From: an uncultured Candidatus Saccharibacteria bacterium
GTDB lineage: Bacteria; Patescibacteriota; Minisyncoccia; Phycocordibacterales; UBA9973
NCBI GenBank assembly: GCA_964473175.1
Contig: CAYYNN010000002.1
Coordinates: 4,563 to 68,562 of the forward strand
Length of the DNA: 64,000 nucleotides
Reading direction: 5' to 3'
Under the pieces are notes generated by a model. That model made no database searches and had not been told where the DNA came from. It worked only from the letters and a program-made list of their open reading frames with translations. A program made the translations under genes and the position numbers. Shown here one piece after another: positions 12,303 to 29,225 of this stretch (its first letter is position 1; each line of letters begins with the position of its first letter).

Positions 12303-12350
12303 ACAAAACAGTATACACCGTACTCCAAACAAACCTGCTACACTCTATTG

Positions 12351-13166: not shown

Positions 13167-14060
13167 ATGGAAGATCATCTCAACCGACCGAGTAAGCAGT
13201 TTCTAAAACGTGGCGCGATAGCTATTGGCATTCTCGCCATTATCCTTGTTGTCCAAACGACATGGTTCCGACATATATTCACCAAGAAAAGCTCAAGCCC
13301 TATCGTTGCATCTACCACTGTGGGAGATTTGGTTACCAAAGATACCAATGGTAACGGCATAGCAGATTGGGAAGAGCGCTTGTGGGGACTTGACCCAACA
13401 GTGCTTTATACCAACGGTGTGTCTAATGAATCCATCATTGCCGGCAAGAAAAAATCACTCGGTGTTGCCAACACGACATCAGATGCCAACCTTGACGATA
13501 CTGACCGTCTCGCGCGGGAACTGTTCACACTTACTGCGGCATTAGGTCAGTCTGATGAAGTTGATAGTGCAACATTGCGAACAATTGCTGCAAAACTCGG
13601 TTCTTCTGTAGATATCAGAGCCGTAAGCAATCAATATTCACTCAAAGATCTCCAAACCGTTCAAACAACTATTGCGAGCCTTACAAAATACCGAACTTCT
13701 ATGCAAGCAGTCATCAAAAAATATGATGTAAACACTCCTGATATAGAAGTATTGGCAACAGCACTGCAAAATGAAGACTATAGTGGCCTCCCTCAACTTA
13801 CTCAAAGTGCCGTTATATACCAGAGACTAGCCAAAGAACTCACTGCAGTACCTACACCGATTGGCCTGGCGACCAACCATCTCAGTATCATCAACGGTTT
13901 TTCTGGTATTGCGACATCATTTACATACATGACAGAACTTGATGACAACTCACTCAAAGCACTTGTCGGAGTCGCAGTGTACAAAAATTATGCTAACAAA
14001 CTTGCGATTGCAACAAGTCAGATGAATGATTATTTGATTCAATACGGTATACTGCAATAA
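13167..14060 (+). CDS. Hypothetical membrane-anchored protein (first gene of T4SS-like island?)
   Basis: N-terminal TM (AIAIGILAIILVV). 297 aa. No motif. Confidence 0.45.
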   Translation: MEDHLNRPSKQFLKRGAIAIGILAIILVVQTTWFRHIFTKKSSSPIVASTTVGDLVTKDTNGNGIADWEERLWGLDPTVLYTNGVSNESIIAGKKKSLGVANTTSDANLDDTDRLARELFTLTAALGQSDEVDSATLRTIAAKLGSSVDIRAVSNQYSLKDLQTVQTTIASLTKYRTSMQAVIKKYDVNTPDIEVLATALQNEDYSGLPQLTQSAVIYQRLAKELTAVPTPIGLATNHLSIINGFSGIATSFTYMTELDDNSLKALVGVAVYKNYANKLAIATSQMNDYLIQYGILQ

Positions 14061-14063
14061 CAC

Positions 14064-16436
14064 ATGAATACGGCGCGCAATATTTTCTTCATAGCACTCA
14101 TACTCCTCTTTATACCGACGGCAACACATGCGGCTCCACTTTGCTCCGATGGAACACCAGCACCTGCAGGGAACATTTGTAACTGCGCTGCAGCATTCAA
14201 TGGAGGAGGGAGTAACTTCACCCCAGGGTCAGGATCAAGTCTTACCGGAAACACCTTTGATGGTAAGACTTTCTCAGGTTTAGGTGGAGCATTAATAAGC
14301 TGCCTTAACATCGGTGGTGCTATTTCCAACCTTTCCTCTAACCTCCAAAATGGAGATGGGTTTAGTTTTAAAGATAATTCAGTACAGCAAATCCCTGTCA
14401 ATGCTTCATCTGTAGAACAAGGTACAACTAAAACCGCGAAGGAAACAGCGGCGACAACAAAACGAGAACAGTGTCTCAACGGTGCAGCATATGCCGCAGC
14501 AAAAACATCTCTCCAAAAACTCTCTGACAAAACACTCAACTGGGTCAAGACCGGTTACAACGGCAATCCACTCTATGTTCGAGATATTGATTCATTTATG
14601 TCATCTATTGCAGGAGAAAAACTAAACACGTATCTCAACCAATACATCGATGCGAGCAATAGTCCTGTATTTGGTAATGCACTTAAGTCAGTCATCAAAA
14701 AACAAGTTACTGGGTGGGATGACGGCTACCTCAACAAGGCTATGAATACACCTGAAGGTAAGGCATATACGGCATTTCAATCTGATTTTACTCAAGGAGG
14801 GTGGGGGGCGTTGTTAAATATGAAGAACAATCCTATCGGAGCATATTTTAATGCAACGGACCAAGTGAGCGGTATTATTGGTACAGCGCAACAAAATACA
14901 CAGAACGAACTCCAACAAGGAAATGGTTTCTTGAGTATGAGAAAGTGCGTCGAGTATGAAGACAAGAGTACAAAAGTAAGTGGTACAAATTCTTCTGGGC
15001 CTGATTGCGGAACATTACAAGACCAAGCACAAGAACAATACGACACATGTATGCAACTTGCCGGAAGTGGTCAAACACAACAGGAGCAATCTGCCAGTGA
15101 ACAAATTTGTCAGATAACCCTTACTGCTGCTCAGTCTCAAATAACGTCATCAACATGTAGTCCTGCAAATGGTACGACACCAGTACTTGCAGGTAGCAAG
15201 GCAAAGTGTCTTAAATACGAAACAGTGACCCCTGGATCTCTGATTGCCAACCAAGTGAACGGTGTTTCAAACTCAACATCACAGATATTGATTAATGCAG
15301 ATAAAATCAACGAGACGATTGGTGTATTCTTTGGGCAGTTGATGGACAGACTCTTTACGGACGGACTCAGCGGTACTGGTAATGGTTCAAGTGGAAATAA
15401 AGCTGATCCGAGTTGGTCACTGGGAAATAACGTAGTGACTGGTACTAATGGGAAAACCCTTGCAAGCGCATCATCCTGCCAAACCCCGTTAGGGTACGAC
15501 CCTTCTACTGGAGGGTTTGACCAAGAGTTTGATATTAGTAGACCCCAGCAATTGAACTCAGTTATTGTGACGCAGAAAAACTTCCTTACTCGTATGCAAG
15601 ACGCACAATTTGTGATGAACAAATTTATTCCTCGTCTCGGAGCATTGGACTACTGTATTCCAGGACCAAACCCAACATACAACAACAACCTCAACGAGAA
15701 CGCACAGGCACTTATTTCTCAATTTCAAACACTCACTGAAACATATAACAATGCAGCGAATACAGCCATTCAAGGGGCTCTTGATCCTGGGCATATATTG
15801 ACGGCTGCAGGGTGTGCTATTTTCCCTCGAAGCTGTGATAACACTCCTCATATTGTTGGATATTCAACTACTCGAGTATCTCTTTTTGACAAAGTGACTG
15901 AGGAACAAAAAAGAATTAGTGATCGTATTTACGGAACCGGTGCATCAGAAGAATTGATGAGGTTTTTTCTTAGTGATGTTGTCGTAGAACTCAAAAGCTT
16001 ATTTGCAACCACATATACCGACACCAACATCATCAACGCATTCGTTAGTACTAGCACCAACCCTGCCCAACAAACATTGATCTCCGGGAAAATAAAAGAG
16101 TCTATTAAAATAACTGCTGACCTTCCTGGATATGCACAAGGAATAGCTGGATATAATGAATACTACTCATCTACTATCGAGAACACACAAGCAGCTTTAA
16201 CTGAACTTGCTGCTATATACAAAGATGTGCAAGATATTGTTGGTCCAGCAAAAGCACGATATATTCTCGACATGCAAAACGCAGGTACTCCCGTCAACCT
16301 CTCTTGTATTGATAACGCCTACCGACTCGGCCCAATAGGTACCGGCGTGGCTCATCTAGAAAACATTACTGCCCCGCTTGACGCATTCCAGTTGCACTCT
16401 GCGGCGTCGAGCGCATATTTCTATAGTCATCTATAA
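14064..16436 (+). CDS. Large secreted Cys-rich protein (hypothetical)
   Basis: Signal peptide MNTARNIFFIALILLFIPTATHA. 790 aa with many Cys. No recognised domain. Confidence 0.55.
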   Translation: MNTARNIFFIALILLFIPTATHAAPLCSDGTPAPAGNICNCAAAFNGGGSNFTPGSGSSLTGNTFDGKTFSGLGGALISCLNIGGAISNLSSNLQNGDGFSFKDNSVQQIPVNASSVEQGTTKTAKETAATTKREQCLNGAAYAAAKTSLQKLSDKTLNWVKTGYNGNPLYVRDIDSFMSSIAGEKLNTYLNQYIDASNSPVFGNALKSVIKKQVTGWDDGYLNKAMNTPEGKAYTAFQSDFTQGGWGALLNMKNNPIGAYFNATDQVSGIIGTAQQNTQNELQQGNGFLSMRKCVEYEDKSTKVSGTNSSGPDCGTLQDQAQEQYDTCMQLAGSGQTQQEQSASEQICQITLTAAQSQITSSTCSPANGTTPVLAGSKAKCLKYETVTPGSLIANQVNGVSNSTSQILINADKINETIGVFFGQLMDRLFTDGLSGTGNGSSGNKADPSWSLGNNVVTGTNGKTLASASSCQTPLGYDPSTGGFDQEFDISRPQQLNSVIVTQKNFLTRMQDAQFVMNKFIPRLGALDYCIPGPNPTYNNNLNENAQALISQFQTLTETYNNAANTAIQGALDPGHILTAAGCAIFPRSCDNTPHIVGYSTTRVSLFDKVTEEQKRISDRIYGTGASEELMRFFLSDVVVELKSLFATTYTDTNIINAFVSTSTNPAQQTLISGKIKESIKITADLPGYAQGIAGYNEYYSSTIENTQAALTELAAIYKDVQDIVGPAKARYILDMQNAGTPVNLSCIDNAYRLGPIGTGVAHLENITAPLDAFQLHSAASSAYFYSHL

Positions 16437-16444
16437 TACATCCT

Positions 16445-17449
16445 ATGAAACGAGCAATTACAATTTTCCTTATCATCCTTGTCGTCGTCGGCATTTTCCT
16501 TACTGGAGCATGGCTGATATCTCGACGTACTGCAGTCAAAAACAGCGCCCCAGCACCAACATTTCGTGACTTCATCACTGGAGACTCAGGAAAAGGTGAC
16601 ACACTTACTCCAAATAACGGCGATCTTTCATCTGTGTTCGTCGATGACAACCTCGGTAACACCGATACTGTTGGTGTCGTCGATACAACTCCAGGAACTC
16701 AAGTTGCACAGTTTACCAATGGAGGCACTTCGCCATCAGGAGGTAGTAGTGGGGCCGGCAATACACAAGGTACGAGCGGGAACGGTATCACCACTACAAC
16801 CTCTCCCAATGGGACTACTACAACGACAACTCCAGGAACAGTTCCAGGAACAGTTATTATTACAACCACAACTCCCAATGGGACTACTACAACGACAACT
16901 ACCAGTATCGATCCGACAACACAACCTCCGTCAACTGCACCTGCTACCACACCTGGTCCCGCATGTGGTGACGCAGATCTCAATATTCAGTTTACTGCGA
17001 ATGAGCTCGCCAAGTTACAGGTACTTCAAAACCGTTTTTATGCTATCGCGCAAAGCCTCCACTCTGATGCAGATGTAGCAACTGAACTAGGTAACCATGA
17101 CAACTTCCTGGCAAAAGTTACCAATACCGAGAGTCTGTACCTGTTTTGCGATCAAATAGTTACAACCCAAGGAGCTGGTGCTATTACGAATCCTGCATAT
17201 AAAAAGCATATTCCAACACCCTTTTGGCATAGTAACGGTATATTGGGTACAGACAATGAACTATTTATCGCAACAGATGGTCCCTATGATGGAACACTTC
17301 GTATAGGAATACCTATGCCGAACGGATTCCCTGGAAACCAAGACCCCGGAGATATAACGACCAATCCGGATGACCTACTGTTTACACCCAACAACGTCAA
17401 GCTTGTCTTGCGGTCACTTGAACGCTCACTCCGATTGAACCTGTGGTAG
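16445..17449 (+). CDS. Membrane-anchored Thr/Gly/Pro-rich repeat protein
   Basis: N-terminal TM, low-complexity SPNGTTTTTTPGTVPG repeats encoded by about 29-bp direct DNA repeats (16802-16900). Confidence 0.5.
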   Translation: MKRAITIFLIILVVVGIFLTGAWLISRRTAVKNSAPAPTFRDFITGDSGKGDTLTPNNGDLSSVFVDDNLGNTDTVGVVDTTPGTQVAQFTNGGTSPSGGSSGAGNTQGTSGNGITTTTSPNGTTTTTTPGTVPGTVIITTTTPNGTTTTTTTSIDPTTQPPSTAPATTPGPACGDADLNIQFTANELAKLQVLQNRFYAIAQSLHSDADVATELGNHDNFLAKVTNTESLYLFCDQIVTTQGAGAITNPAYKKHIPTPFWHSNGILGTDNELFIATDGPYDGTLRIGIPMPNGFPGNQDPGDITTNPDDLLFTPNNVKLVLRSLERSLRLNLW

Positions 17450-17479
17450 TAAATACTATTTGCGTGATACACTGTACAC

Positions 17480-20400
17480 GTGGATTCACTCTCTGTCAGA
17501 CGGTTTATTTTTAGAATAAAAAAAAATCTCTCACGCATCTCCAAGACAGCGCTTTTCGCGTTCGTCTTTTTGATTTTATTGGGTGGAAATATATCTCAGG
17601 TCTTTGCGGATGATGCATTCAATGAATACAAGTATCTTTTCAATACAGCAAATAGCAGCATTCCTATAACAGTAGGTGTTAATACGAACACTTTTGCAAA
17701 AAAATCATGGATGGTTGACGGTCAGAATATTTCAGGGATTTGGATGAAATATTCCTATACCTTTGGAAGTGAGACAGGGGATAAAAACGCTGAATACACA
17801 TGGGACCATATTGACGCATTAAATGGTAGTGAAATTTTTATCGTGAGATCTTGTGATACGGGAACAACAGATAACTGCATTTATAGCAAAATTCCATATA
17901 CACAATATGGATATGGAACCGATACCAATATCATATTTCGAGCAAGAGCTAGTGCATACTTTGCAAATCAAACCGTTGATATTAAAGCATCACAATGGGT
18001 AACATCTAGTGATAGTTCTATTGTTCCAGATTTTCTCACAAAACCAGCTCAAAGCGTTAGTATTTGGTATTGTGCATCAAAACCAAACCATGCTGTTATC
18101 GCAGGTGGAGATGATCGCCCTGAACCAAAAGATGCTGCTGACTCAGCAAATGATCCAGCAATTCAGAAATTTGGAAGTCTCTGTGATGGAAGAACATATT
18201 TTAAGATCAACCAAGTAGATGGGCTAAAACCTGTGTCTGCTCAGATAGAATCACAGACACAAGCTACTACAACAAATGAGGCAAGTGGTGGTGCTGGGGG
18301 TGCAAAGGCCGAAGGAGAAGGGAACGACCTACCTTCATGTAGTTTTACGGGAGGAATCTTTAGCGCAGGTAGTTTCATGGGGTGTATTGCTCGAGTCGTG
18401 TATTACGTTGTGTATTGGCCTATTGCGTGGTTTGCGAGTTTAATGGGCAACTTGTTTGACTTCTTCTTGTCTTATTCGCTTTCCGACAGCTCGTACCGTG
18501 CTGAGTTTGCTATCAGAGGGTGGCAGATAGTGCGAGATATATCCAACATCTTCTTTATTGTTATCCTGGTTTGGACCGGCTTATCGACAGTGTTCAACAC
18601 AGGGACAAACATGAAGAAAGTAGTGCCAAACCTTATTTTGAATGCACTACTCATCAACTTCTCACTCTTTGGAACGAGAGTGATCATCGATATATCCAAC
18701 ATCGTCGCTCGTGTCTTTTATAATACGATGCAGGTCTGTGAGGGGAAGTGTGTGGATGCCAACAACGATGGAGTACAGGACAACCCAGCCATTGGTGCCG
18801 GTAAGTCAAAAGCTCTTTCCCAAAAAATAGTTTCTGCATTCAATCCGCAAAAAATATTTGACACTAGTGTAATTGACTCACAAAGAGCTGTTAAAAACGT
18901 TACTCAATCAAAGATTGCTGACAGTGACAGTGAGGTTGCTGGGTATTATATCGTGGTGACCATCATTGCTGCGGCTATTCTTTTTGGTATTGCAATGATG
19001 TTTTGGAGAGTGGCATTTTTCTTCTTGGGAAGAGTTATTGGTCTGTATGTGGCCATGATATTTGCGCCATTCGCATTCCTGGGACGAGGAGGTCTTCCGT
19101 TGGTGAGTGGTATCAAAGAACTGTCGTGGGATAGTTGGCTTTCAGACTTGACCAAATATGCATTGTTAGCACCTATTTTTGTATTCTTTTTATATATTAT
19201 TTATTCATTCCTTGAAACAAATTTCATCACCGTATATACAGGTGTGGTAGGGAATACTTTCTTTGAAACAGTTATCTATATCGCAGTGCCGATGTTGATC
19301 GTCTATTTCATGGTCAAACAAGGGGTTACCATTGCGGAGAATTATGCGGGGAAAATCGGAAAGCAGGTGCAGGAAGGCGCAATGAAGGTTATAGGGTCAG
19401 GTGTCGGTCTCGCAGCGGGCACAGCAGCATTTGCTGGAAGAAATATTATTGGACGAGGTCTTGGTGCTATAGGTAAACAAAAAGTTTCGTATACAGATAA
19501 GGATGGAAAAGAGATCGAAACAACTCGGGCTGCACAATGGGCAGCTAATTCAAACAACAGTTTCTTTGCAAGGAGATGGAACAACACCTACAGTGCATCT
19601 CAGACTGGGTCATGGGATGCTCGAAATGTAAATGTCGCAGGAAAATCCGCTGAAGATAGGCTTTTCAAAGGCCTTGGCCTTAGTGACAATATTAGCGGGA
19701 AGCTCGGAATTGGCAAAGAAAAAGCACTCGGGAAAGATGGTAAGGCAGGAGGTAATGTCATGATTAATAAAAAACGTGATGAAGAAAAACAGAAAGAAAT
19801 AGAAAGTAGAATCCAGACAGCCCATCTATCAGATGAGGATGCTAAGGCGGCGGGCGAGCGCTATAAGAATGAAAAAATTAAGGCATTTGCGGATCAGCAT
19901 TGGACAGAACATGTTGATGTCGATGATATCGCACTAAATTCTAAAGCATATCGTGACCTTAAGACAAAAGAAGAACAAATACAAAAAGATTTAGTTGCTG
20001 CTAAGGCTGCTAATCTACCTGGGGCAACGGCAATACATGAACAAAGTCTTGCAGACAATAAGACTGCACAGGCTCAAACATTGCAGAAGGAAAAAGATAC
20101 AGCAAAAGATACAAAAGAAAAAGACCAAGCTGCATTTCAACAACTCAAGCTTCAGGCAGTTGACCAGATCACAAAAGACAATAAGCGAAATGAGAGCGAA
20201 GCTTTTAAAGATACAGTCAAAGAAGAAAGAGATCGTTTGGATAAGTATGGAAAAATTAAAGACAATAAAAGCTTTACGAACATGATGAGAGCCGAATATG
20301 TTGAAGACTTACAAAATGGATCCTTCTGGGGGGAATTTACAAAATCTGGTTTCGGTTCTGCTGTTAGTAAAACTGCAATTGGATCTATTCTCGGAACACT

Positions 20401-20938
20401 AATACCTGTACTTGCGCCAGCAGTAGGGACTTTATTAGGGGGAGTATTTGCAAAAGAATTAGCAGACGATCTTATAGACAATGCTACAGGATCTAGATCT
20501 CGTGCAATAAAAGCAATCATAAAAAAGGCAACGGCTGCTCCAGGAACTGGAAACACACTAGTCGATCTCGAAGCTCGACTTCAAAAACACAAAGACTCTG
20601 CAGTGGACGCAATCAACGAATCACTTAAGACTGCTTACGACTCATACGACAAAATTTTACCAGCAGAGTCTAAAAGGGGGATATTAAAAAGGATTGCGAT
20701 GCTTGATGAAGATATAGAAAATTTTACAGAAGAGATTAAGACTTTAACAGGTGATAAAAAGATTGAGGCCAGATACAATAAAGCCAAGGCTGAGGATGAG
20801 CGTACAAATCTTCGAAATATTGAAGAAAAACTTGCCCGTGCACAAAAAGATCTTGATGAGAAAAAAGACCGTGAGAATGACAAAGAAGAGAGGAAGAAAG
20901 AATCAAATAAGCCTAAAACTAAAGAGCCTAGTAAATAA
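17480..20938 (+). CDS. Polytopic membrane protein, VirB6/TrbL-like, with long C-terminal K/E-rich coiled-coil tail
   Basis: Signal/TM, extracytoplasmic domain, then at least 6 TM helices in the pattern of TrbL/VirB6 proteins, then about 450 aa charged coiled coil. 1152 aa. Confidence 0.45.
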   Translation: MDSLSVRRFIFRIKKNLSRISKTALFAFVFLILLGGNISQVFADDAFNEYKYLFNTANSSIPITVGVNTNTFAKKSWMVDGQNISGIWMKYSYTFGSETGDKNAEYTWDHIDALNGSEIFIVRSCDTGTTDNCIYSKIPYTQYGYGTDTNIIFRARASAYFANQTVDIKASQWVTSSDSSIVPDFLTKPAQSVSIWYCASKPNHAVIAGGDDRPEPKDAADSANDPAIQKFGSLCDGRTYFKINQVDGLKPVSAQIESQTQATTTNEASGGAGGAKAEGEGNDLPSCSFTGGIFSAGSFMGCIARVVYYVVYWPIAWFASLMGNLFDFFLSYSLSDSSYRAEFAIRGWQIVRDISNIFFIVILVWTGLSTVFNTGTNMKKVVPNLILNALLINFSLFGTRVIIDISNIVARVFYNTMQVCEGKCVDANNDGVQDNPAIGAGKSKALSQKIVSAFNPQKIFDTSVIDSQRAVKNVTQSKIADSDSEVAGYYIVVTIIAAAILFGIAMMFWRVAFFFLGRVIGLYVAMIFAPFAFLGRGGLPLVSGIKELSWDSWLSDLTKYALLAPIFVFFLYIIYSFLETNFITVYTGVVGNTFFETVIYIAVPMLIVYFMVKQGVTIAENYAGKIGKQVQEGAMKVIGSGVGLAAGTAAFAGRNIIGRGLGAIGKQKVSYTDKDGKEIETTRAAQWAANSNNSFFARRWNNTYSASQTGSWDARNVNVAGKSAEDRLFKGLGLSDNISGKLGIGKEKALGKDGKAGGNVMINKKRDEEKQKEIESRIQTAHLSDEDAKAAGERYKNEKIKAFADQHWTEHVDVDDIALNSKAYRDLKTKEEQIQKDLVAAKAANLPGATAIHEQSLADNKTAQAQTLQKEKDTAKDTKEKDQAAFQQLKLQAVDQITKDNKRNESEAFKDTVKEERDRLDKYGKIKDNKSFTNMMRAEYVEDLQNGSFWGEFTKSGFGSAVSKTAIGSILGTLIPVLAPAVGTLLGGVFAKELADDLIDNATGSRSRAIKAIIKKATAAPGTGNTLVDLEARLQKHKDSAVDAINESLKTAYDSYDKILPAESKRGILKRIAMLDEDIENFTEEIKTLTGDKKIEARYNKAKAEDERTNLRNIEEKLARAQKDLDEKKDRENDKEERKKESNKPKTKEPSK

Positions 20939-20940
20939 TT

Positions 20941-21471
20941 ATGACAGATCAAAACAACACAAAACAAGAAGAGGATTTTGATAAAGCACTTATTGAAGTG
21001 CCTGAAGAAGTCAGGGAATTTATGTGGAGTGATGCATATACTTACATACTCGATGTAGCACAGAAAGCACTTTCATTAACTGATTCGGAAAAAGCAGCGA
21101 TGAGGGTCACTTCTTACAATCTACTATTGCGTATTACTGATATGGAAACGGAGAGTAAAAATATGCTTTCCTCAGAAATAGATCCGGAGAAAATAACAAA
21201 GATACTTTATACAATTCATACTCAAATATTAACTGCTGCAAAAAATATTATGAAATATGATCAATATATTGACGATGAGATTGCATCAAATGAGGGAGCA
21301 ACCGCCCCAACTCCATCCGACATGCTTGCACGTCTCAACCAAACCTTCATAAAGCCGACAACGCTAAGCTCTACCAAGCGCGATCTCAGTAATGAGGGTA
21401 TTAAAAGTATCGATACCGTCCCAAAAAGCTCATCATCTATAGACCCCTATAGAGAACTTCCTGATAAATAA
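20941..21471 (+). CDS. Hypothetical acidic cytoplasmic protein (T4SS-like island)
   Basis: 176-aa ORF tightly packed in island (3-nt gap from upstream gene). Confidence 0.45.
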   Translation: MTDQNNTKQEEDFDKALIEVPEEVREFMWSDAYTYILDVAQKALSLTDSEKAAMRVTSYNLLLRITDMETESKNMLSSEIDPEKITKILYTIHTQILTAAKNIMKYDQYIDDEIASNEGATAPTPSDMLARLNQTFIKPTTLSSTKRDLSNEGIKSIDTVPKSSSSIDPYRELPDK

Positions 21472-21506
21472 AAGGGTAATGAAAAAATAACTGCTATACT
21501 TTACTC

Positions 21507-21911
21507 ATGCAGTTCAAGGTTCCACAATTCATCGACATTGAAGACAAAGTATTTGGACCATTTACGTTCCGGCAGTTCGTATACCTCGCTGGTGGGGCAG
21601 GGTTGGTATACCTCTCACTAAAACTACTTCCACTTCTCATTGCATTGATATTCGTTCCGATATTTGGAGGACTCGCACTTGCGCTCACTTTTTTCAAATA
21701 CAACGACAAGCCTTTTATCAATGTCCTAGAATCCTTCATACGGTTTTATTCACGATCTCGTCTCTACCTCTGGCACAAAAAAGAAACCAAAGCGTCGAGC
21801 AAGATAGTACCCGAAGCAAGAGTCAGTGCAGAGCGTGCTACACTGACGGAGAGTAAGCTCAAGACACTTTCATGGAGTCTTGATGTGATTGACCCCAATA
21901 ATAGTAAATAG
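21507..21911 (+). CDS. PrgI/VirB3-like small membrane protein
   Basis: FGPFTFRQFVYLAGGAGLVYL two-TM hairpin typical of PrgI-family proteins that precede VirB4 in Gram-positive-type T4SS. Confidence 0.5.
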   Translation: MQFKVPQFIDIEDKVFGPFTFRQFVYLAGGAGLVYLSLKLLPLLIALIFVPIFGGLALALTFFKYNDKPFINVLESFIRFYSRSRLYLWHKKETKASSKIVPEARVSAERATLTESKLKTLSWSLDVIDPNNSK

Positions 21912-21928
21912 AACAAACAGTCTCAACC

Positions 21929-22564
21929 ATGGCTACCATCGGCACACCCGCTCAACAATTCGTTCCAGTCAAAGAAGTACGCGACGGCATCATCGTTATG
22001 AAAGACGGTTCCCTCGCTATGGCAATACTTGTTTCATCGGTTAACTTGTCGCTCAAAAGCTTTGATGAACAGCGTGCAACGTTGATGCAGTTTCAAAACT
22101 TCCTCAATACACTGGATTTCCCGATACAAATAGTTATTCAGTCTCGTCGATATGACATTCGACCCTACATTTTGACCCTGCAAAACCGCCTCAAGGAGCA
22201 AACAGAGTCGCTCTTGCAGGTGCAAACACGCGAATACATTCAGTTCATCCAAAGTTTTACTGACCAAGTCAACATCATGCGCAAAAACTTCTTTGTGGTT
22301 ATTCCATACATTCCGCCGATCCTCAACCAACAAAGCGGTATCGGCAAGATCTTTTCATTTTTAAACAAAACAAATACTGCGACACAGTCCGTGATCGAGT
22401 TTGAGCAACAGCGTACACAACTTGAAGAAAGAGTTAACGTGGTTGAGCAAGGGCTTTCTCGTGTCGGTCTTCGTGTTGCACAACTTGGAACTGAAGAGGT
22501 GATTGAGTTGCTCTACAAAACATTTAACCCAGGAGAAAGTACGTCACAAGCAAAAGCACAATAA
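21929..22564 (+). CDS. VirB4/TrbE N-terminal domain fragment (split gene, part 1)
   Basis: KEVRDGIIVMKDGSLAMAILVSSVNLSL...FPIQIVIQSRR resembles the start of CagE_TrbE_VirB N-domain. Same frame as the next ORF, separated by TAA...TAG. Confidence 0.5.
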   Translation: MATIGTPAQQFVPVKEVRDGIIVMKDGSLAMAILVSSVNLSLKSFDEQRATLMQFQNFLNTLDFPIQIVIQSRRYDIRPYILTLQNRLKEQTESLLQVQTREYIQFIQSFTDQVNIMRKNFFVVIPYIPPILNQQSGIGKIFSFLNKTNTATQSVIEFEQQRTQLEERVNVVEQGLSRVGLRVAQLGTEEVIELLYKTFNPGESTSQAKAQ

Positions 22565-22606
22565 TACTCACACCAAATGATAATAGTATTGTATACTGCG
22601 TAGGCA

Positions 22607-24421
22607 ATGGCACTCTTTGGTTCAAACAAAAAAAAGGAAGACAAGCTGTTACCGATCGCACCGTCACAAGTGTATGAATGGGCAACAATGGAGCTCGCTG
22701 ATAAAATAGCGCCTTCAGCTATCGAAATCACTCCGAAGTCGATGCGTATCGGCGACAAGATCATCCGAACTTTTTTCGTTATTTCATATCCGAGATTTCT
22801 CACTGACAACTGGCTGACTCCTATCATCAACCTGGACAAGATTTTTGATGTTGCTATTTACGTCAACCCTATTGAAACAGCAGAACTGTTGAAGCACTTC
22901 CAAAAAAAGATCGCTGAAGTTGAGAGTCAAATCATCGTCAGACAACAAAAAGGTGTTGTTCGTGATCCGATGCTCGATACTGCATACCAAGACCTTGAAG
23001 AACTTCGTGACAACCTCACCCAAGCGCAGGACAAAATGTTCAATATTGGCTTCTATATCTCTATCTATGCCGATAACGAGAACGATCTCTTTCGAACTGA
23101 AAGTGAGATCAAAAGTATGCTTGAGAGCAAGATGATCTATATCAAACCTGCTCTTTTCCAAGAAGAGGATGGGTTCAAAACAGTAACACCTCTAGGTACT
23201 GACAAACTCGGTATTACCCAAAAGCTAAACTCTGAACCGATATCATCGATGTTTCCGTTCGTGTCTTTTGATCTGACAGGGGATACTGGGATTTTGTATG
23301 GGGTTAACCGCCACAACTCTTCTCTGGTTATCTTTGACCGGTTTTCTCTCGAGAACTACAACTCCATCATTTTTGCCAAGTCTGGTGCCGGCAAATCATA
23401 TGCGACAAAGCTCGAGATTATCCGTACACTCATGTTTGATACAGATGTGATTGTTATTGACCCAGAACGAGAGTATGAATATTTGGCGGAAGCAATCGGA
23501 GGCAGGTATTTCAATATTTCACTTTCGTCTGACAACCACATCAACCCCTTTGATTTGCCTATACCTCGAGTTGATGAGTCACCTGCAGATGTACTTCGCT
23601 CCAACATCATTAACCTCGTTGGACTATTTCGTATTATGCTTGGAGGACTTTCTCCAGAAGAAGACTCTATTGTTGACCGCGCGATCACTGAAACATATTC
23701 ACTCAAAGATATTACGCCTGAAAGCGACTTCACTTCTATCGAACCCCCACTTCTTTCTGACTTTGAAATGGTCCTTTCGGGAATGGAGGGGACAGAATCG
23801 GTATTGCAGCGTCTCACCAAATACACTCATGGCTCATGGGCAACATTCATCAACCAACCAACGAACGTAGATATCAACAAGAAATTCGTTGTGTTCTCAG
23901 TGCGAGATATGGAGGATGATCTCAAACCAGCTGCAATGTACATTGTGACGCACTTTATATGGAATGCGGTTCGCAAAGAGCTCAAGAAACGGTTGCTCGT
24001 CGTCGATGAGGCGTGGTGGATGATGAAATCAGATGATACTGCATCATTCTTGTACTCTATTGCAAAGCGAGGGCGTAAATACTATCTCGGGCTGTGTACC
24101 ATCACGCAAGACGTGGGGGACTTCATGAAGAGTCCGTATGGTGTCCCTATCGTGACCAACTCATCTATTCAACTCTTGCTCAAGCAGTCTCCGTCTACTA
24201 TGGACGTCCTCCAGAAGACGTTCAACCTTACTGACGAAGAAAAATTTCTCCTTTTAGAAAGTGGTGTAGGGGAGGGTATATTCTTTGCGGGACTCAAACA
24301 CGTCGCAATCAAGATTATTGCAAGTTATACCGAAGATCAGATCATTACTTCTGACCCGTCACAGGTTATTTCTATTCGTAGTGCAAAAAAAGAATTTAGT
24401 GAACAAAATAAACGTTCATAG
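22607..24421 (+). CDS. VirB4/TrbE/CagE-family T4SS ATPase (split gene, part 2)
   Basis: N-domain continuation (ITPKSMRIGDKIIRTFFVISYPRFLTDNWLTPII), Walker A IIFAKSGAGKSY, Walker B LLVVDEAWWMM. 604 aa. Confidence 0.8.
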   Translation: MALFGSNKKKEDKLLPIAPSQVYEWATMELADKIAPSAIEITPKSMRIGDKIIRTFFVISYPRFLTDNWLTPIINLDKIFDVAIYVNPIETAELLKHFQKKIAEVESQIIVRQQKGVVRDPMLDTAYQDLEELRDNLTQAQDKMFNIGFYISIYADNENDLFRTESEIKSMLESKMIYIKPALFQEEDGFKTVTPLGTDKLGITQKLNSEPISSMFPFVSFDLTGDTGILYGVNRHNSSLVIFDRFSLENYNSIIFAKSGAGKSYATKLEIIRTLMFDTDVIVIDPEREYEYLAEAIGGRYFNISLSSDNHINPFDLPIPRVDESPADVLRSNIINLVGLFRIMLGGLSPEEDSIVDRAITETYSLKDITPESDFTSIEPPLLSDFEMVLSGMEGTESVLQRLTKYTHGSWATFINQPTNVDINKKFVVFSVRDMEDDLKPAAMYIVTHFIWNAVRKELKKRLLVVDEAWWMMKSDDTASFLYSIAKRGRKYYLGLCTITQDVGDFMKSPYGVPIVTNSSIQLLLKQSPSTMDVLQKTFNLTDEEKFLLLESGVGEGIFFAGLKHVAIKIIASYTEDQIITSDPSQVISIRSAKKEFSEQNKRS

Positions 24422-24437
24422 TGCTATACTAGTACCT

Positions 24438-25385
24438 ATGAAACGTGTATTCACGCTCTTGTTTCTTATAGTCATATTCTCGAGTGCACCATATACTGGC
24501 GCGCAAAGTATTACCGATGATATTTCGGTTGATATTATTCCACTTAACCCGGCCCCCGGTGCAATAGTGACACTCCGAGCAAACAGTTACAGTATGGACT
24601 TGAGTCAAGCAAGCCTCTCATGGACCTACAACAACGTTAGCATTGGTAAAGGAACAGGTAAAACAACGGTTAGTATTGTTGCTCCCGCAAGTGGCGCCAC
24701 TGGAGTTATTTCTGTTAGTGCGTCTGGCTCAGGAAGCACAGCGTCTACGAGTATTGTTTTGAGACCAGGAAGTGTTGATGTCCTCTGGGAAGCGGTAGAT
24801 GCATATACTCCTCCGTTTTATAAAGGCAAAGCACTCCTACCGGTCAACGGGTTGATCCGCTATGTCGCAATGCCGGCAACATCTGCACCCAAAACACTGA
24901 CATATACATGGTCACGCAACAGTTCTGTATTACCTGATGAATCTGGTTATAACAAATCAAGTCTTCTCATCAAGCATAGTGAGTTCAACCCTGTAGAAAG
25001 TGTCACTGTTGCGATTTCTGGTGGATCATATGCTGGTAACAGCACTATCAATGTCCGACCCATAACATCTCCAAGTATTGTGGCGTATCAAAACAGGGAA
25101 GGGTTTGTCGACTACACTACAGGGTACAGTAGTGTGATTCCATTTACCCAGAGTGGTATGGTGCTTCACTTTGAACCATACTATTTCTCTATTGCGCGCA
25201 CGCTGCTCAGTGATCTTTCTTATGATCTCACTATTGATGGACAGTCAGTCAGTCCATCAAAACCAAATGAAGTTGGTCTTTCTCGACCGTCTAGGCCCGG
25301 ACAAAGTACCATCAACCTCGCGATAACAACCACTGCGTACAGCTTGCAACATGCAGAAAAAGCCCTTACCCTCAATTTCAATTAA
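24438..25385 (+). CDS. Hypothetical secreted protein (T4SS-like island)
   Basis: Signal peptide MKRVFTLLFLIVIFSSAPYTGAQS. Start trimmed from the longer ORF. Confidence 0.5.
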   Translation: MKRVFTLLFLIVIFSSAPYTGAQSITDDISVDIIPLNPAPGAIVTLRANSYSMDLSQASLSWTYNNVSIGKGTGKTTVSIVAPASGATGVISVSASGSGSTASTSIVLRPGSVDVLWEAVDAYTPPFYKGKALLPVNGLIRYVAMPATSAPKTLTYTWSRNSSVLPDESGYNKSSLLIKHSEFNPVESVTVAISGGSYAGNSTINVRPITSPSIVAYQNREGFVDYTTGYSSVIPFTQSGMVLHFEPYYFSIARTLLSDLSYDLTIDGQSVSPSKPNEVGLSRPSRPGQSTINLAITTTAYSLQHAEKALTLNFN

Positions 25386-25386
25386 T

Positions 25387-27228
25387 ATGACTACCGTTTT
25401 AAAATCATTTTTTTTCATACTTTTCTTTACACTTTTGGTCATACCAGTATCCAAAACATTTGCCGCACCACCATACCCATTTACCGCAACCATAAATGGT
25501 AACAGTATCGTTGCAAAAATGACCAATGCTCCTGCTGATGCGACACAATATCGCCTCTACAACGGAAACACTCCTGTCGCATCCAACGACCTTGTTGGTC
25601 CGGATACGAGTATCCAAACACAAACAAATGGTATCGTTACTTGGACTATTAGTGGTCTTGGGTTTGTAAACGGTGTTTACACCTTGCATGTTGAAAAAGT
25701 CCCGGCAGTTGGACAAATTACCGTATTTGGCGGCACCAACATTGTAACCGCCGATGTATCAGTCACCGTCAACACAAGTACTACAGACTTTTTCCTCTGG
25801 CCCATGAACGCGGTCAGTGCAACAGGACAAGGTATTGTCTTGGCAGGTAAAATAGATACATCACAATACCCTGCGACGAATGGTCTACAGGTTAAAATAC
25901 AGTATTCAACATCCGCTAACCCTTCAGGAGGTACAGAGTTGGTTGCCCACAGCACACTTGGGTCAGGTAGTACCGAAGGGGTGGCATCAGATGGGTCATA
26001 CTATTTTGAACTGAACTCACTGACACCAAAAACAAAGTATTACTATCGTCAAACTATCACTGCTACAGCAACCAACACGGTGCTGAGCACCAAAGACCTC
26101 TATTTCAATAGTACCGATGGGTATGTTCCCTCAGGGACTCTCCAGCAAGAAGAAGTGGAGGCAGATCGTACATATCATCTCCTTGCTCCATGGCCAGGAC
26201 TTTCCAAACTCTATGACCCAGCACTCTGTCAGGAGAAAAAAGATGCGGGAGAAATTCCAGTGAATTCTGTGTGTGACGTGAACGGCTTCATCAACTTTGC
26301 ATTCAAAACATTGATCGGACTCACTGCGGTTGTGCTTGTCCTCCGATTGATGTTTGAAGGCTACCAATACATGGTCACTGATGTCCCATTTCTCAAAGCA
26401 TCCGCAAAGGGGAGCTTCTTTTCTGCATTGATGGGCTTGTTGCTTGCACTCGGGTCATATGTGATTCTCAATACCGTGAACCCAAAGTTGGTGGATAACA
26501 AGTTTAATATTGCGGGAGTGAATGTGGGGGTTGAATTTACAGAATTTGATGCAGCAACATTCCAATCTGTTTCAGGTAGGCCTATAAAAGCAAAAGCTGA
26601 GTTACTTGCTATAGTAAAATCGACTGCTCAATCAAAAAATATTGATTCTTGCATCGTTCAAGCAATCATTCAACATGAAAGTCAGTGGAAAGAAAATGCT
26701 GTTGGGTGTGACGAAAATGTGAAAAGTAACGGAGTTCCATCCCGAACTGCATTTGTACAATCTGGAGTTACACTATCGGGAACTACTTTTACTCCAACCT
26801 CTGCCACTTCTTCAGTCACAAATGATAGCCTGGTTCCTGGTAAAAAATGTTATTTTGATGAAACTAAGCCAGGATTTAATTTAGACTGGAGATTTTCAAA
26901 AGGATTTGGTTTAGGGCAAACTACAATTTTCCCTTCAAACTACAATGAATCAAGTTGGTTTACTGATGTTAAACAAGGGGGTGTACTTTGGAACAATCGC
27001 TCTACTGTCCCTACTGCAAAAATTAAAGATCTCTTGCAAAATCCTGCTACTCAAGTTAATGCAATAATTACTATATATAAAAACAACGCAAGTACCTGCT
27101 TGACTGATATACAAAAATCTTTTGCTGCATATAACGGGGGAAGTTGCGGTACTACAAATGCTAATGCGTTAGCATATGGACGAAGTGTAAAGGCGACATA
27201 TGATCTCTGTAAGCAAAACGGTGGTTAA
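25387..27228 (+). CDS. Secreted/membrane protein with C-terminal lytic transglycosylase (SLT, VirB1-like) domain
   Basis: Signal peptide, beta-rich N domain, two-TM hairpin (LIGLTAVVLVLRLMFEGY...LLLALGSYVILN), C-terminal AIIQHESQWKENAVG ... GFGLGQ ... AAYNGG resembling the SLT ES/GLMQ/AYNAG motifs. Confidence 0.55.
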   Translation: MTTVLKSFFFILFFTLLVIPVSKTFAAPPYPFTATINGNSIVAKMTNAPADATQYRLYNGNTPVASNDLVGPDTSIQTQTNGIVTWTISGLGFVNGVYTLHVEKVPAVGQITVFGGTNIVTADVSVTVNTSTTDFFLWPMNAVSATGQGIVLAGKIDTSQYPATNGLQVKIQYSTSANPSGGTELVAHSTLGSGSTEGVASDGSYYFELNSLTPKTKYYYRQTITATATNTVLSTKDLYFNSTDGYVPSGTLQQEEVEADRTYHLLAPWPGLSKLYDPALCQEKKDAGEIPVNSVCDVNGFINFAFKTLIGLTAVVLVLRLMFEGYQYMVTDVPFLKASAKGSFFSALMGLLLALGSYVILNTVNPKLVDNKFNIAGVNVGVEFTEFDAATFQSVSGRPIKAKAELLAIVKSTAQSKNIDSCIVQAIIQHESQWKENAVGCDENVKSNGVPSRTAFVQSGVTLSGTTFTPTSATSSVTNDSLVPGKKCYFDETKPGFNLDWRFSKGFGLGQTTIFPSNYNESSWFTDVKQGGVLWNNRSTVPTAKIKDLLQNPATQVNAIITIYKNNASTCLTDIQKSFAAYNGGSCGTTNANALAYGRSVKATYDLCKQNGG

Positions 27229-27247
27229 ACTGTAGTACAATACACAT

Positions 27248-28513
27248 ATGCGAAAGTTGCTCATCATTATTTTATCTCTCATCGTGCTTTCAGGAGTTGG
27301 GTGGTACATATACGCCAAGATGCACCAGACTGCTCCAGGTGTACCATCTATCACTGATTTCACTTCCTTCTTTCCTACGGGTGATCAGACGAACCCTGGA
27401 GGTGTACCAGGTATCCTGCCAGGACTTCCTTCGACATCCACTACTGCAGAGATAGCGACGTCGAACTCTCCATTCAAACAGATCAGTCCAAACCCCGTAG
27501 CAGGTTTTACTATTTTTGACCGAAGCATCACTGTCGTAACGCCAGCTGATCCTACAGTACCCAAATCAAAACCAACACCACAAACCGTTCTCAAACATTT
27601 GTTGCGCTATGTCTCACGTACAAACGGCTATGTGTATGAAATAGAAGACGGCTCTATTCCACTACAAATCTCAAACGTCTATATTCCAAATATCTATGAA
27701 GCAGTGTTTGGCGACAAATATGAAACAGCAGTCCTTCGCTTCCTCAGAACAGACCAGCGCACGATTGCAACCTATGCGGTTCCTATTCCATCACCCAACC
27801 CTGACGGTACACGCACACAAAAGCCAGGGACATACTTGCCCGACAACCTTATCGCAGCGGTGTCCGCACCGGATGACAGCCAGGTGGCACGCATCATGAT
27901 CGACAAGAATGGATCACTTCTTTCAACATCAGCGACCGTCACTGGCAAAAAATCCGATATCCTATCAAACACTTTTAGAGAGTGGATATTGTCGTGGCCA
28001 AATGCCAAAAGTCTCTATCTCCAAACAAAAGCAAGTGCACAAGTGCCAGGGTATTTGTATCGAGTCGACACCAGTGACAAGAAACTACAAAAAGTACTTG
28101 GGGGTATTACTGGTCTAACAGCATCAGTGAGTCCATCAGGAACATATGTCTTGTATTCTCAAAGTACTGATACAGGATTTGTGACAAAACTATTTAATAC
28201 AAAAACCAACACCACAAAAGGTATCAGCTTGAACATTCTTCCCGAGAAATGTGCTTGGCTTAAAAATGAAGACCTCGTATGTGCAGGTAATACCGCCATA
28301 CCTAACGCAATATACCCCGATGCGTGGTACCAGGGAACAGTGGCATTTTCAGATCAGTTGTATCGTATTTATACAGGCTCTCTTATTTTTGATACTTTGT
28401 ATGACAATACCAGTCGGTCATACGATATGACATCGCTCATGGTTAATGAATCCACCAACACGGTGTATTTCATAGACAAACCAACGGGTTTACTCTGGCA
28501 GTTTTCTTATTAA
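27248..28513 (+). CDS. Hypothetical membrane-anchored secreted protein
   Basis: N-terminal TM/signal MRKLLIIILSLIVLSGVGWYIYA. 421 aa. Confidence 0.5.
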   Translation: MRKLLIIILSLIVLSGVGWYIYAKMHQTAPGVPSITDFTSFFPTGDQTNPGGVPGILPGLPSTSTTAEIATSNSPFKQISPNPVAGFTIFDRSITVVTPADPTVPKSKPTPQTVLKHLLRYVSRTNGYVYEIEDGSIPLQISNVYIPNIYEAVFGDKYETAVLRFLRTDQRTIATYAVPIPSPNPDGTRTQKPGTYLPDNLIAAVSAPDDSQVARIMIDKNGSLLSTSATVTGKKSDILSNTFREWILSWPNAKSLYLQTKASAQVPGYLYRVDTSDKKLQKVLGGITGLTASVSPSGTYVLYSQSTDTGFVTKLFNTKTNTTKGISLNILPEKCAWLKNEDLVCAGNTAIPNAIYPDAWYQGTVAFSDQLYRIYTGSLIFDTLYDNTSRSYDMTSLMVNESTNTVYFIDKPTGLLWQFSY

Positions 28514-28520: not shown

Positions 28521-29225
28521 TTATAGTTTTCCGAGGGTTATTCTCTTTCGGAAATAGATCTCTTGAAGTATTGAGAATGTATTGGCAACTATCCAATAGA
28601 GCGCTACTGCTGCTGCGAGCTTTGTGGCAACAAAGATAATGATAAGAGGGAGAATGTATCGAGTCTGTACGGACATACTCTTGGCAAACTGATTTTGAAA
28701 TCCAGCATCGTTGCTCGCCGCAGGTTTTGGCTGGAGGAATGCCTGAATACCTTGGGTAACACCAGCAAGTATCGCAAACGGAAGAAATGGTTGTGATATA
28801 TCGATCAAACCTAAAAGAGTGTTCTTGAGACCTTCAGTACTCAAAAATGAATAGAGGTGTGTTGGTTGATCAACTCCAGCCTGGAATACAAAGTACAGTG
28901 CAAAAAGAATGGGGAGTTGAATGAGAAGGTAGAGACATCCTGAAAAAGGATTAATTTTCTCAGTTTTGTAGAGTGCAAAAGTTTCTTTTGCTTCTTCCTC
29001 TTTTGACAAACCTTTCGCCTTGATTGCAGCAATCTTGGGCTCAAGTGCACGCATTTTGTATTGTCCAACAATACTCTTCTTGGACAACGGCATCACAATA
29101 AAACGGATAATGACAGTGAGAATAATCACTGCAACACCAACATCACGAAAGGTGAGGTATTGAGCAATAAATATAAGCGCGTTATAAATAGGGTTGTAGA
29201 TGACAGTGTTCCAAAGGGTATGCAT
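28521..29225 (-). CDS. yidC: Membrane protein insertase YidC (short form)
   Basis: IRFIVMPLSKKS...INPFSGCLYLLIQLPILFALYFVF conserved YidC/Oxa1 core. 234 aa. Sits in the conserved rpmH-rnpA-yidD-yidC cluster. Confidence 0.85.
   Translation of the reverse strand: MHTLWNTVIYNPIYNALIFIAQYLTFRDVGVAVIILTVIIRFIVMPLSKKSIVGQYKMRALEPKIAAIKAKGLSKEEEAKETFALYKTEKINPFSGCLYLLIQLPILFALYFVFQAGVDQPTHLYSFLSTEGLKNTLLGLIDISQPFLPFAILAGVTQGIQAFLQPKPAASNDAGFQNQFAKSMSVQTRYILPLIIIFVATKLAAAVALYWIVANTFSILQEIYFRKRITLGKL

Follow-up and report, generated by a model that had tools for sequence, protein, structure and literature searches.

The closest described relatives of the locus analyzed here are the type IV secretion systems (T4SS) of the Patescibacteria. 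The locus is a cluster of eleven open reading frames (ORFs), termed g1 to g11, at positions 13167–28513 (+) of a 64,000 nucleotide (nt) stretch of contig CAYYNN010000002.1 (positions 4,563 to 68,562; GenBank assembly GCA_964473175.1). This whole stretch is referred to as the window. The cluster encodes a T4SS, a system already described in papers of 2023 to 2025 for this bacterial class. Very probably it is the chromosomal Patescibacteria T4SS in its Paceibacteria form, which nearly all of these ultrasmall CPR bacteria carry. Such a system derives from MPF-FATA conjugation apparatus, as found in bacteria with a single membrane, has lost the DNA-processing module, is inherited vertically beside oriC and would function as a host interface, not in conjugation.

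The main text of Wang et al. (2023; PMC10633639) describes a T4SS of Southlakia epibionticum (Saccharibacteria), SEML1_0006–0019, which is essential for epibiotic growth. The Saccharibacteria T4SS is presented there as closest to the conjugative systems of Gram-positive bacteria, with pilins and without a recognizable coupling protein or relaxase. The patescibacterial system is the first T4SS demonstrated to be essential to its own bearer (Saccharibacteria). Quinonero-Coronel et al. (2025; PMC12102498) surveyed 2,474 patescibacterial virB4 genes. According to the main text of the survey, the patescibacterial VirB4 proteins form a distinct clade that is allied to MPF-FATA, a TrsD homolog is encoded separately beside VirB4, and PrgI/VirB3, VirB6 and VirB2-like pilins are also present. 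VirB1 linkage to virB4 occurs mainly in Paceibacteria, VirB8 is almost absent, and the neighbors of the Paceibacteria T4SS are dnaA, dnaN, rnpA, ksgA and rpmH. The same text reports very few relaxases (only about 100 Patescibacteria genomes) and coupling proteins that lie mostly far from virB4. Pilins and VirB1 were counted separately, and the conclusion drawn is that most pilin-bearing genomes are without VirB1.

The same findings are summarized in a review of 2025 (PMC12857230) and in a perspective of 2024 (PMC11665869), which give the function of these systems as unknown, with effector delivery and nucleotide uptake as the proposals. A 2026 preprint (10.64898/2026.06.21.733656) describes consumption of host RNA and tubes that link a cultivated relative to its host; the suggestion made there is that the tubes may be T4SS pili. 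The role of the T4SS is a major open question in how ultrasmall epibionts live off their hosts. The window brings no new kind of system; it provides a clean Paceibacteria example.

Sequences and searches

One genome per species was scanned for relatives of g8, which gave at least 597 species loci, and the best 80 by similarity to g8 were fetched. All 80 are from Patescibacteria and are labelled Nomurabacteria, Paceibacterota, Parcubacteria, Kaiserbacteria or Wolfebacteria. The Pfam scan covered the major window ORFs of at least 110 amino acids (aa), together with rpmH and yidD, and left out ORFs nested in longer genes. The plasmid comparison set consisted of 72,556 plasmids and the exhaustive protein search set of 1.84 billion representative proteins.

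The VirB4 motor and its probable membrane partners

g8 encodes the motor core of a VirB4 ATPase. The sequence displays a TraG P-loop domain in Pfam (1e-24), scores 372 bits (cut-off 325) with the NCBIfam model "VirB4-like conjugal transfer ATPase, CD1110 family" at model positions 183–733 of 752, and matches the VirB4 of PDB entry 4ag5 (4e-41). Walker A at A257–S264 and Walker B (LLVVDE) at positions 463–468 are both intact. When compared with the one-piece VirB4 of a Clostridium perfringens plasmid (783 aa), g8 aligns to residues 202–754 (E-value = 7e-86) and shows 32% identity across 559 residues.

g7 aligns to residues 35–193 of the same plasmid protein. The two window sequences align consecutively to the plasmid VirB4, therefore the two genes are colinear with a normal VirB4. 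NCBIfam matches of g7 are at positions 105–285 of VirB4_plasma (3.7e-14) and positions 2–118 of the CD1110 VirB4 model (2.3e-6). There is also a match to TrsD (7.8e-6), with an NF041427 score of 25.8 bits that is below the curated cut-off of 200. g7 appears by its sequence to be a distant relative of TrsD and not a member of the TrsD/TraD family at the NCBI threshold. It is a stand-alone N-terminal VirB4 domain (TrsD-like), and g7 and g8 together represent the VirB4 ATPase.

The two genes are distinct ORFs in all 80 loci, and all three relative reading frames occur among them. In the window g7 and g8 share a frame, with two stop codons within the 42 nt between them. As the split is present in every locus and in all frames, the same-frame double stop found here is a coincidence and not a sign of decay or recoding. 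The split is an ancient and conserved two-gene design (TrsD-like plus VirB4). An earlier description of this DNA, made from the letters and the ORF list only (the sequence-only reading), had listed a VirB4 ATPase in two pieces; the two genes are real, but the word "pieces" does not fit a design found in 80 of 80 loci.

g6 is a VirB3/PrgI-like small membrane protein, a hairpin of two transmembrane segments that adjoins VirB4. It scores 40.3 bits with Pfam PrgI (4.8e-10, cut-off 27), which bears out the PrgI/VirB3-like assignment made earlier, and it also matches TcpE (1.6e-3). g6 is found in 76 of the 80 loci.

g4 is likely an "extended VirB6-like" polytopic membrane protein. Its N-terminal part is extracytoplasmic and precedes a core with multiple transmembrane segments; the C-terminal tail is long and charged and has one further hydrophobic segment. 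The conserved core encompasses residues about 284–668 (window positions 18329–19483) and displays about seven hydrophobic segments. Among 54 orthologs the core residues W348, R352, N356, N393-F394-S395, D404, R518 and P530 are invariant. Neither g4 nor these 54 close orthologs match TrbL/VirB6 in Pfam or NCBIfam, a profile search of PDB sequences gave chance matches only, and a tblastn search of the 72,556 plasmids with the core found no match. The hhalign probability between the g4 profile and the protein upstream of PrgI on the Clostridium plasmid is 1%. PF04610 (TrbL/VirB6) is matched by five of 45 more distant members of the g4 family, with a best E-value of 1.4e-6. An AlphaFold (AF2) model of the core has a pLDDT of 78.7, and its top Foldseek matches in the PDB are the R388 TrwI/VirB6 protein and Legionella DotA, both weak (E-values 0.04–0.25, TM-scores 0.23–0.34). 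Of the earlier label "1152-aa VirB6/TrbL-like", the polytopic character stands, whereas a direct hidden Markov model (HMM) match was not obtained and the family link is indirect, through the five distant relatives and the weak fold matches.

The g10 protein

The C-terminal region of g10 displays an SLT lytic transglycosylase domain (1.2e-5, 25.3 bits, cut-off 21.3) with the catalytic E443-S444 motif, in agreement with the SLT/VirB1-like ending noted in the sequence-only reading. That description was incomplete, however, as it missed the VirB2-like pilin domain that is the conserved core of the protein. Among 67 orthologs, PF18895 (T4SS_pilin) is matched by 58 and TrbC/VirB2 by 17. Alignment of the orthologs indicates that the conserved part of g10 is this pilin-like core, at residues 268–400, and not the SLT domain. 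The core is kept in all 67 orthologs, and in 65 of them the C-terminus extends beyond it by 50 aa or more, mostly by 140–260 aa. The N-terminus consists of a signal peptide and a variable part, with Ig/FN3-type domains only in some relatives; the N-terminal extensions of the family fall into 29 clusters and range from 21 to 471 aa.

The C-terminal extensions belong to at least 20 unrelated sequence clusters. Those that can be named are NlpC/P60 (12), VanY (10), YkuD (5), SLT_2/SLT_4 (4), SLT_3 (3), Peptidase_M15_4 (3) and SLT (3, window included). Among the nearest relatives, in which VirB4 is 86–96% identical, SLT is found in the window and in locus L009, SLT_2/4 in L002 and L004, NlpC/P60 in L003, L006 and L008, VanY in L005, and another type in L007. 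The wall hydrolase of g10 is swapped even between close relatives, while the pilin core is conserved.

A word-indexed homolog search with the 133-aa pilin core gave no match, and an exhaustive search was used instead. This search recovered 6,843 relatives of the core; in the best 150 of them the core is mostly in the middle of the protein, which is about 430–730 aa in length. Pfam analysis of 75 core-bearing representatives shows NlpC/P60 in 16, VanY in 12, SLT in 8, SLT_2 in 7, M15_4 in 6, Amidase_5 in 5, YkuD in 4, and Amidase_2 and a GDSL esterase in two each. Several of the proteins P0325–P0330 from the same search have two to four pilin-like cores per polypeptide. Such proteins would represent pilin modules in tandem and not arrays of pilin genes.

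In the usual VirB2 topology both ends face outward. Therefore the enzyme domain of g10 would be extracytoplasmic. No paper describing a fusion of pilin and hydrolase was found in a literature search that did not cover supplements. Fusion of the pilin to hydrolases other than VirB1 may be the reason for the conclusion of the 2025 survey that most pilin-bearing genomes lack VirB1.

A fixed chromosomal locus

The gene order in the 80 loci, wherever the contig reaches, is uvrD, ksgA, g1, g2, (g3), g4, (g5), g6–g11, yidC, rnpA, dnaA, dnaN and a PBP gene. A comparison across Patescibacteria had been proposed together with the sequence-only reading, and the order from ksgA through g1–g11 to dnaN does recur in the fetched loci. 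A few local swaps are seen: g6 and g7 are inverted in L015, g11 precedes g10 in L012, L022 and L074, and g10 precedes g9 in L024.

The identity of g8 is 73–96% in the best 80 of the at least 597 species loci, compared with at most 35% to the VirB4 of any of the 72,556 plasmids. g8 can be assigned on these comparisons to the Patescibacteria VirB4 lineage, which is distant from the VirB4 of mobile elements. Median identities to the window proteins are listed in Table 1. In each of the 57 loci with both proteins, conservation of g8 exceeds that of DnaA; selection of the loci by their match to g8 favors g8 somewhat, yet the gap is large. For a gene of a secretion system, a VirB4 core that outscores DnaA in conservation is unusual. 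Conservation of the motor above that of DnaA argues for constant, essential use.

No direct (att-like) repeats bracket the cluster, there is no shift in GC content across it, and no tRNA gene is present at either border. VirD4, relaxase, MobC and VirB11 were not found in the Pfam scan of the window ORFs of at least 110 aa, which upholds the earlier statement that VirD4-like ATPase, relaxase and VirB11 are missing from the window. The sole T2SSE-superfamily ATPase in the window, at 43206–44921 (−), displays an MshEN domain and is a PilB-type pilus ATPase. The further statement that the window has no integrase is literally wrong. A tyrosine recombinase is encoded at 2452–3618 (−), with a Phage_integrase match of 1e-43 and an N-terminal SAM-like domain, and it scores as XerC/XerD/XerA. 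It is 9.5 kb from g1, with six to eight ordinary ORFs in between (the count varies with unannotated ones): an NYN-domain protein, a DksA/TraR-type zinc finger, a ComM-like ATPase, an M23/LysM peptidase, UvrD, KsgA and a few ORFs without a family. The recombinase is a housekeeping Xer-type protein and not the integrase of an element; it looks like a chromosome-dimer resolvase. A check of the flanks for an integrase with att repeats therefore leaves only this distant Xer-type protein and no repeats.

The cluster is a vertically inherited core locus and not a mobile island. The sequence-only reading had considered it chromosomally fixed, possibly repurposed and unlike a conventional conjugative element; the synteny in 80 loci, the comparison of VirB4 with DnaA, the lack of mobile-element signs and the published work (PMC10633639, PMC12102498) all agree with this, and the term "island" used in the same reading is misleading for a locus of this kind.

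Accessory proteins

Six proteins make up the accessory set, of which five are anchored or secreted and one is soluble and probably cytoplasmic. g1, g2 and g3 are anchored or secreted, fast-evolving proteins without a recognizable family in Pfam and NCBIfam, and for g1 and g2 also in the PDB. g1 has a single hydrophobic segment at residues 11–29, which is an N-terminal transmembrane anchor, and its C-terminal part is helical. An acidic motif resembling DTDGDGIxDWEExLWGxDP is conserved in the alignment of g1 orthologs. The gene is at the same position in 36–37 loci with a median identity of 28%; it has no significant Pfam match and none in NCBIfam or PDB sequences. g2 displays an N-terminus that resembles a signal peptide. 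The size given for it earlier, 790 residues, is correct; 16 of these are Cys (2%), for which the description "Cys-rich" is generous. Between species only about half of the protein can be aligned (median identity 27%), and searches of Pfam, NCBIfam and PDB gave no match. g2 is a secreted or surface protein and a candidate for a role in host contact.

g3 has an N-terminal anchor followed by a Thr-rich, low-complexity stalk (17% Thr). The stalk is encoded by an imperfect tandem DNA repeat with a unit of 67–69 nt at positions 16786–16921, and the protein is the Thr-repeat anchored protein that the earlier description had recognized. This repeat is likely a site of length variation. g3 is detectable only in the eight closest loci. 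In 25 of 44 loci its slot is occupied by one or more ORFs, and in the example loci inspected the protein there has one transmembrane segment.

g5 is acidic and soluble, with no transmembrane segment and no Pfam match, and is probably a cytoplasmic protein. Its sequence is recognizable only in the seven closest loci. The slot between g4 and g6 contains at least one ORF in 63 of 63 loci tested, and the 12 inspected are mostly free of transmembrane segments and net acidic.

Behind a signal-peptide-like N-terminus, g9 consists of three homologous repeats, each about 100 aa in length; the hhalign probability from repeat to repeat is 92–96%. The protein is found in 77 of the 80 loci and is apparently strand-rich. 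It has no Pfam match, and a profile search of the PDB gave nothing usable.

g11 displays an N-terminal transmembrane anchor and a disordered linker at residues 32–71. Structure prediction of this 421-aa protein, which had been suggested as a check, gave an extracytoplasmic seven-bladed beta-propeller, and on this model g11 is predicted to be a membrane-anchored seven-bladed beta-propeller protein. Its position after the hydrolase gene made g11 a candidate for a VirB8 or TcpC analog; the beta-propeller model rules this out.

Coordinates and neighboring genes

The coordinates of the cluster and its neighbors are given in Table 1. The picture of eleven co-directional, tightly packed genes drawn from the sequence at the outset is correct in sizes and extent, and the intergenic gaps are 2–42 nt. 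The start of g9 is corrected to that in the table; it is not within an overlapping ORF of 366 aa. The true start of g10 is probably the second Met, at 25387.

Table 1. Features of the T4SS locus and its neighbors. Identities are medians to the window protein (80 loci); for g1, g2, g4, g9, g10 and g11 the range of the six medians is given.
Feature	Position	Strand	Length (aa)	Match or remark	Identity (%)
ksgA/rsmA	12186..13139	+		RrnaAD 1.5e-57; precedes g1 in 25 loci; its end is 27 nt from g1	
g1	13167–14060	+	297		27–33
g2	14064–16436	+	790		27–33
g3	16445–17449	+	334		
g4	17480–20938	+	1152		27–33
g5	20941–21471	+	176		
g6	21507–21911	+	134		48
g7	21929–22564	+	211		57
g8	22607–24421	+	604		77.5
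g9	24438–25385	+	315	start corrected	27–33
g10	25351 or 25387 to 27228	+	625 or 613		27–33
g10, two-transmembrane VirB2-like pilin core	26152–26550	+		residues 268–400; ortholog alignment	
g10, SLT lytic transglycosylase domain	about 26617–27228	+		from residue about 423; Pfam SLT	
g11	27248–28513	+	421		27–33
yidC	28521–29225	−		Pfam match; convergent with g11	46
yidD	within 29271–29561	−		Pfam match	
rnpA	29512–29832	−		Pfam match	
rpmH	29844–29978	−		Pfam match	
dnaA	30091–31473	+		Pfam match	59
dnaN	31670–32767	+		Pfam match	48

The placement of the cluster upstream of yidC-rnpA-rpmH and the origin, as first proposed, agrees with the Pfam-identified neighbors, which most of the fetched loci share, and with the minimum of the cumulative GC skew near 32 kb. 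The dnaA–dnaN spacer has three DnaA-box-like sites (31474, 31576 and 31630), one of them perfect. Only this local cluster of boxes is suggestive; the count of DnaA boxes over the whole window is not above chance. A scan for promoters and terminators did no better than with shuffled sequence, and an Rfam scan of the window found five tRNAs only.

Upstream of the cluster, the genes at 3760–4269, 5196–5588, 6308–7813 and 7850–8977 encode an NYN-domain nuclease-like protein, a DksA/TraR-type zinc-finger protein, a ComM-like ATPase of the Mg-chelatase family and a secreted LysM plus M23 peptidase. None of these is within the conserved T4SS block.

Type IV pilus genes are also present in the window. 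They include the PilB-type ATPase mentioned above and PilM at 60982–62226 (+). Near the pilus genes is a 697-aa surface protein with DUF11 repeats at 46388–48481 (+), which adjoins a 382-aa ORF without a family (45095–46243). Adjacent genes at 52672–53193 (−) and 53195–53608 (−) encode DsbB-like and thioredoxin-like proteins. The pair suggests extracytoplasmic disulfide formation, which fits the conserved cysteines in the exported proteins g2, g4 (C287, C302) and g11 (C335, C345). The ORF at 40647–41075 (+) encodes a 142-aa SET-domain protein (8e-25) with a lysine methyltransferase fold. This fold is uncommon in bacteria. An ORF similar to Ser/Thr protein kinases at 62348–63121 (+) overlaps a tRNA-Val gene (62333–62406), and therefore the listed TTG start is probably wrong.

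Possible function and alternative interpretations

All components of the cluster are subject to strong purifying selection, their chromosomal site is fixed, and no DNA-processing genes are present in the window. In the model proposed here, the VirB4 ATPase would be built of two polypeptides, g7 (the TrsD-like N-terminal domain) and g8 (the motor core), and would be docked at the membrane by way of g6 (VirB3-like) and the polytopic g4 (VirB6-like). The resulting platform at the inner membrane would handle the VirB2-like module of g10, with the N-terminal part and the C-terminal hydrolase of g10 facing outward. The hydrolase may open a way through peptidoglycan, either that of the cell itself or that of the host. 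g1, g2, g3, g9 and g11 would be the wall-spanning and host-contact parts. The machine may serve macromolecule exchange or attachment at the interface with the host cell, and the cargo would be protein or host-derived macromolecules and not conjugative DNA. We infer the membrane topology, assembly, substrate and direction of transport from the composition of the cluster.

Several points weigh against this interpretation. No VirB8-like (NTF2-fold) component was found: g11 is modelled as a beta-propeller, g9 is based on repeats and g1 has no PDB sequence match, although a cryptic VirB8 fold may be present in g1, g3 or g9, which were not modelled. The VirB6 assignment of g4 has no direct HMM match in Pfam, NCBIfam, the PDB or plasmids, and the fold match is weak. 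The window g10 itself is below the Pfam pilin models at E ≤ 0.1 and is assigned through its in-register alignment with orthologs. The statement on VirD4 applies to the window, and the choice of the 80 loci by similarity to g8 somewhat inflates the g8 identities. We know of no experiment on any Paceibacteria T4SS, and therefore substrate and direction stay proposals.

That the core genes descend from conjugation machinery, and that a tyrosine recombinase is encoded at 2452–3618, would be compatible with an ordinary integrative and conjugative element inserted next to the origin and moving DNA between cells. However no relaxase, MobC or VirD4 is present among the scanned window ORFs, the recombinase is XerC/XerD-like with housekeeping genes between it and the cluster, and there is no integrase at the borders. 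Flanking direct repeats and a border tRNA are likewise not found, GC content is flat, the cluster has the same position and neighbors throughout the fetched loci, conservation is higher for VirB4 than for DnaA, and relaxases occur in only about 100 Patescibacteria genomes (main text of PMC12102498). Synteny, the lack of repeats and composition rule out a mobile element of this type, which is left with next to no probability. No more can be given to a decaying T4SS remnant in which the split VirB4 reflects pseudogenization. The shared frame of g7 and g8 with two stop codons within 42 nt invites such an explanation, but the two-gene arrangement is universal and occurs in every frame relation, which rules out both pseudogenization and recoding as the origin of the in-frame stops. 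In addition Walker A and Walker B are intact, identity across species (80 loci) is 48–87% for g7 and 73–96% for g8, and stand-alone TrsD-type proteins are a known feature of these systems (main text of PMC12102498).

The direction and nature of the cargo are a separate matter. Outward delivery of protein effectors or toxins into the host, comparable to the antibacterial T4SS of Xanthomonas or the 89K system of Streptococcus suis, is a tentative possibility that we consider somewhat unlikely on balance. Wang et al. favor protein export given the absence of DNA-processing proteins (main text of PMC10633639), and the operon encodes the fast-evolving secreted proteins g1–g3; against this, known effector translocators usually need VirD4, none of which is in the window, and the Pfam-scanned window ORFs gave no sign of effector-like or immunity gene pairs. 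A little more doubtful is an inward conduit, in the style of Helicobacter ComB or archaeal Ced, which imports host nucleic acids or other macromolecules and feeds a cell without nucleotide synthesis. The window has no coupling protein or relaxase, g8 is weakly similar to the DNA-import ATPases CedB and CedD, and PMC11665869 proposes nucleotide uptake by the T4SS because competence is dispensable in Southlakia; the preprint 10.64898/2026.06.21.733656 adds tubular structures from parasite to host and consumption of host RNA in a cultivated relative. The CedB and CedD scores are however far under their cut-offs, no patescibacterial T4SS has a demonstrated import substrate, and the tubes of the preprint are not demonstrated as T4SS products. 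Least favored among the functional proposals, and quite unlikely, is a surface filament or adhesion structure with local wall remodelling only and no cargo. It would agree with the VirB2-like module, with five anchored or secreted accessory proteins of no recognized family, and with a separate type IV pilus system (PilB, PilM) in the window that points to attachment as a major investment. Yet the extreme conservation of the VirB4 motor and the VirB6-like core suggests continuous work beyond assembly, and adhesion is already covered by type IV pili in Saccharibacteria (PMC12857230).

Within the chromosomal host-interface interpretation, the g10 family raises a further idea, which we regard as speculative and unlikely as it stands. 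The VirB2-like "pilin" of Paceibacteria might be a carrier that displays an exchangeable envelope-degrading enzyme outside the T4SS filament or channel mouth. The enzymes displayed would be a lytic transglycosylase, an NlpC/P60 endopeptidase, VanY and M15 carboxypeptidases, a YkuD-fold domain, an amidase or a GDSL esterase. If this were true, the swapping of modules between near-identical machines would mirror differing wall chemistry of the hosts, as with phage tail lysins, and the apparatus would be a wall-drilling tube for feeding or injection. The apparent lack of VirB1 would also be explained, with the hydrolase supplied in cis by non-VirB1 domains. A swappable wall-degrading enzyme on a pilin-like module offers a concrete way to ask if the wall of the host is a target of the machine. 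The lineage-specific outer parts, i.e. the beta-propeller, the triple-repeat protein and the three fast-evolving surface proteins, could be elements of host contact.

Comparison with known systems

Bordetella Ptl, Brucella VirB and Helicobacter ComB resemble the window locus in having no VirD4 gene alongside the system and in serving functions other than conjugation. They differ in being systems of diderm bacteria with outer-membrane cores of VirB7, VirB9 and VirB10, and none of them is essential to its bearer.

Among the T4SS of monoderm bacteria, the MPF-FATA systems offer the comparison in gene order, e.g. the CD1110/CD1115-type system on the C. perfringens plasmid pSXP-169_2, or PrgH–PrgL of pCF10. 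On pSXP-169_2, the plasmid with the closest annotated VirB4, MobC, relaxase, DUF3801 and VirD4 come first and are followed by two hypothetical proteins, PrgI, VirB4 and an SLT protein. The window retains the latter half of this series (two hypothetical proteins, PrgI, VirB4, SLT) and lacks the former. The pSXP-169_2 protein upstream of PrgI is a possible VirB6 counterpart. The VirB4 of this plasmid is one chain of 783 aa, whereas the window splits VirB4, adds a pilin-like module and has a fixed chromosomal site. TrsD/TraD of the pGO1-type staphylococcal plasmids is, like g7, a small stand-alone homolog of the VirB4 N-terminus encoded beside VirB4 (PMC12102498). The VirB1-type hydrolases PrgK, TraG of pIP501 and CwlT are likewise membrane-anchored, outward-facing and encoded next to VirB4. 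Unlike these, g10 has a VirB2-like pilin module as its anchor, and its enzyme domain is exchanged between close relatives.

The closest likeness is to the published T4SS of the Patescibacteria. The shared features are VirB4 with a separate TrsD-like gene, PrgI/VirB3, a likely VirB6-like protein, a VirB2-like pilin, a wall hydrolase near virB4 (as in Paceibacteria), no relaxase, a coupling protein that is not adjacent, and the dnaA, dnaN, rnpA, ksgA and rpmH neighborhood. Saccharibacteria have arrays of small separate pilin genes, whereas the window has a single pilin-like module inside a 625-aa protein together with a hydrolase. Neither PMC12102498 nor PMC10633639 names the beta-propeller g11, the triple-repeat g9 or g1–g3 in its main text. 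The pilin core of g10 with its swapped hydrolase, the beta-propeller of g11 and the triple repeat of g9 are thus additions to the published picture of this system.

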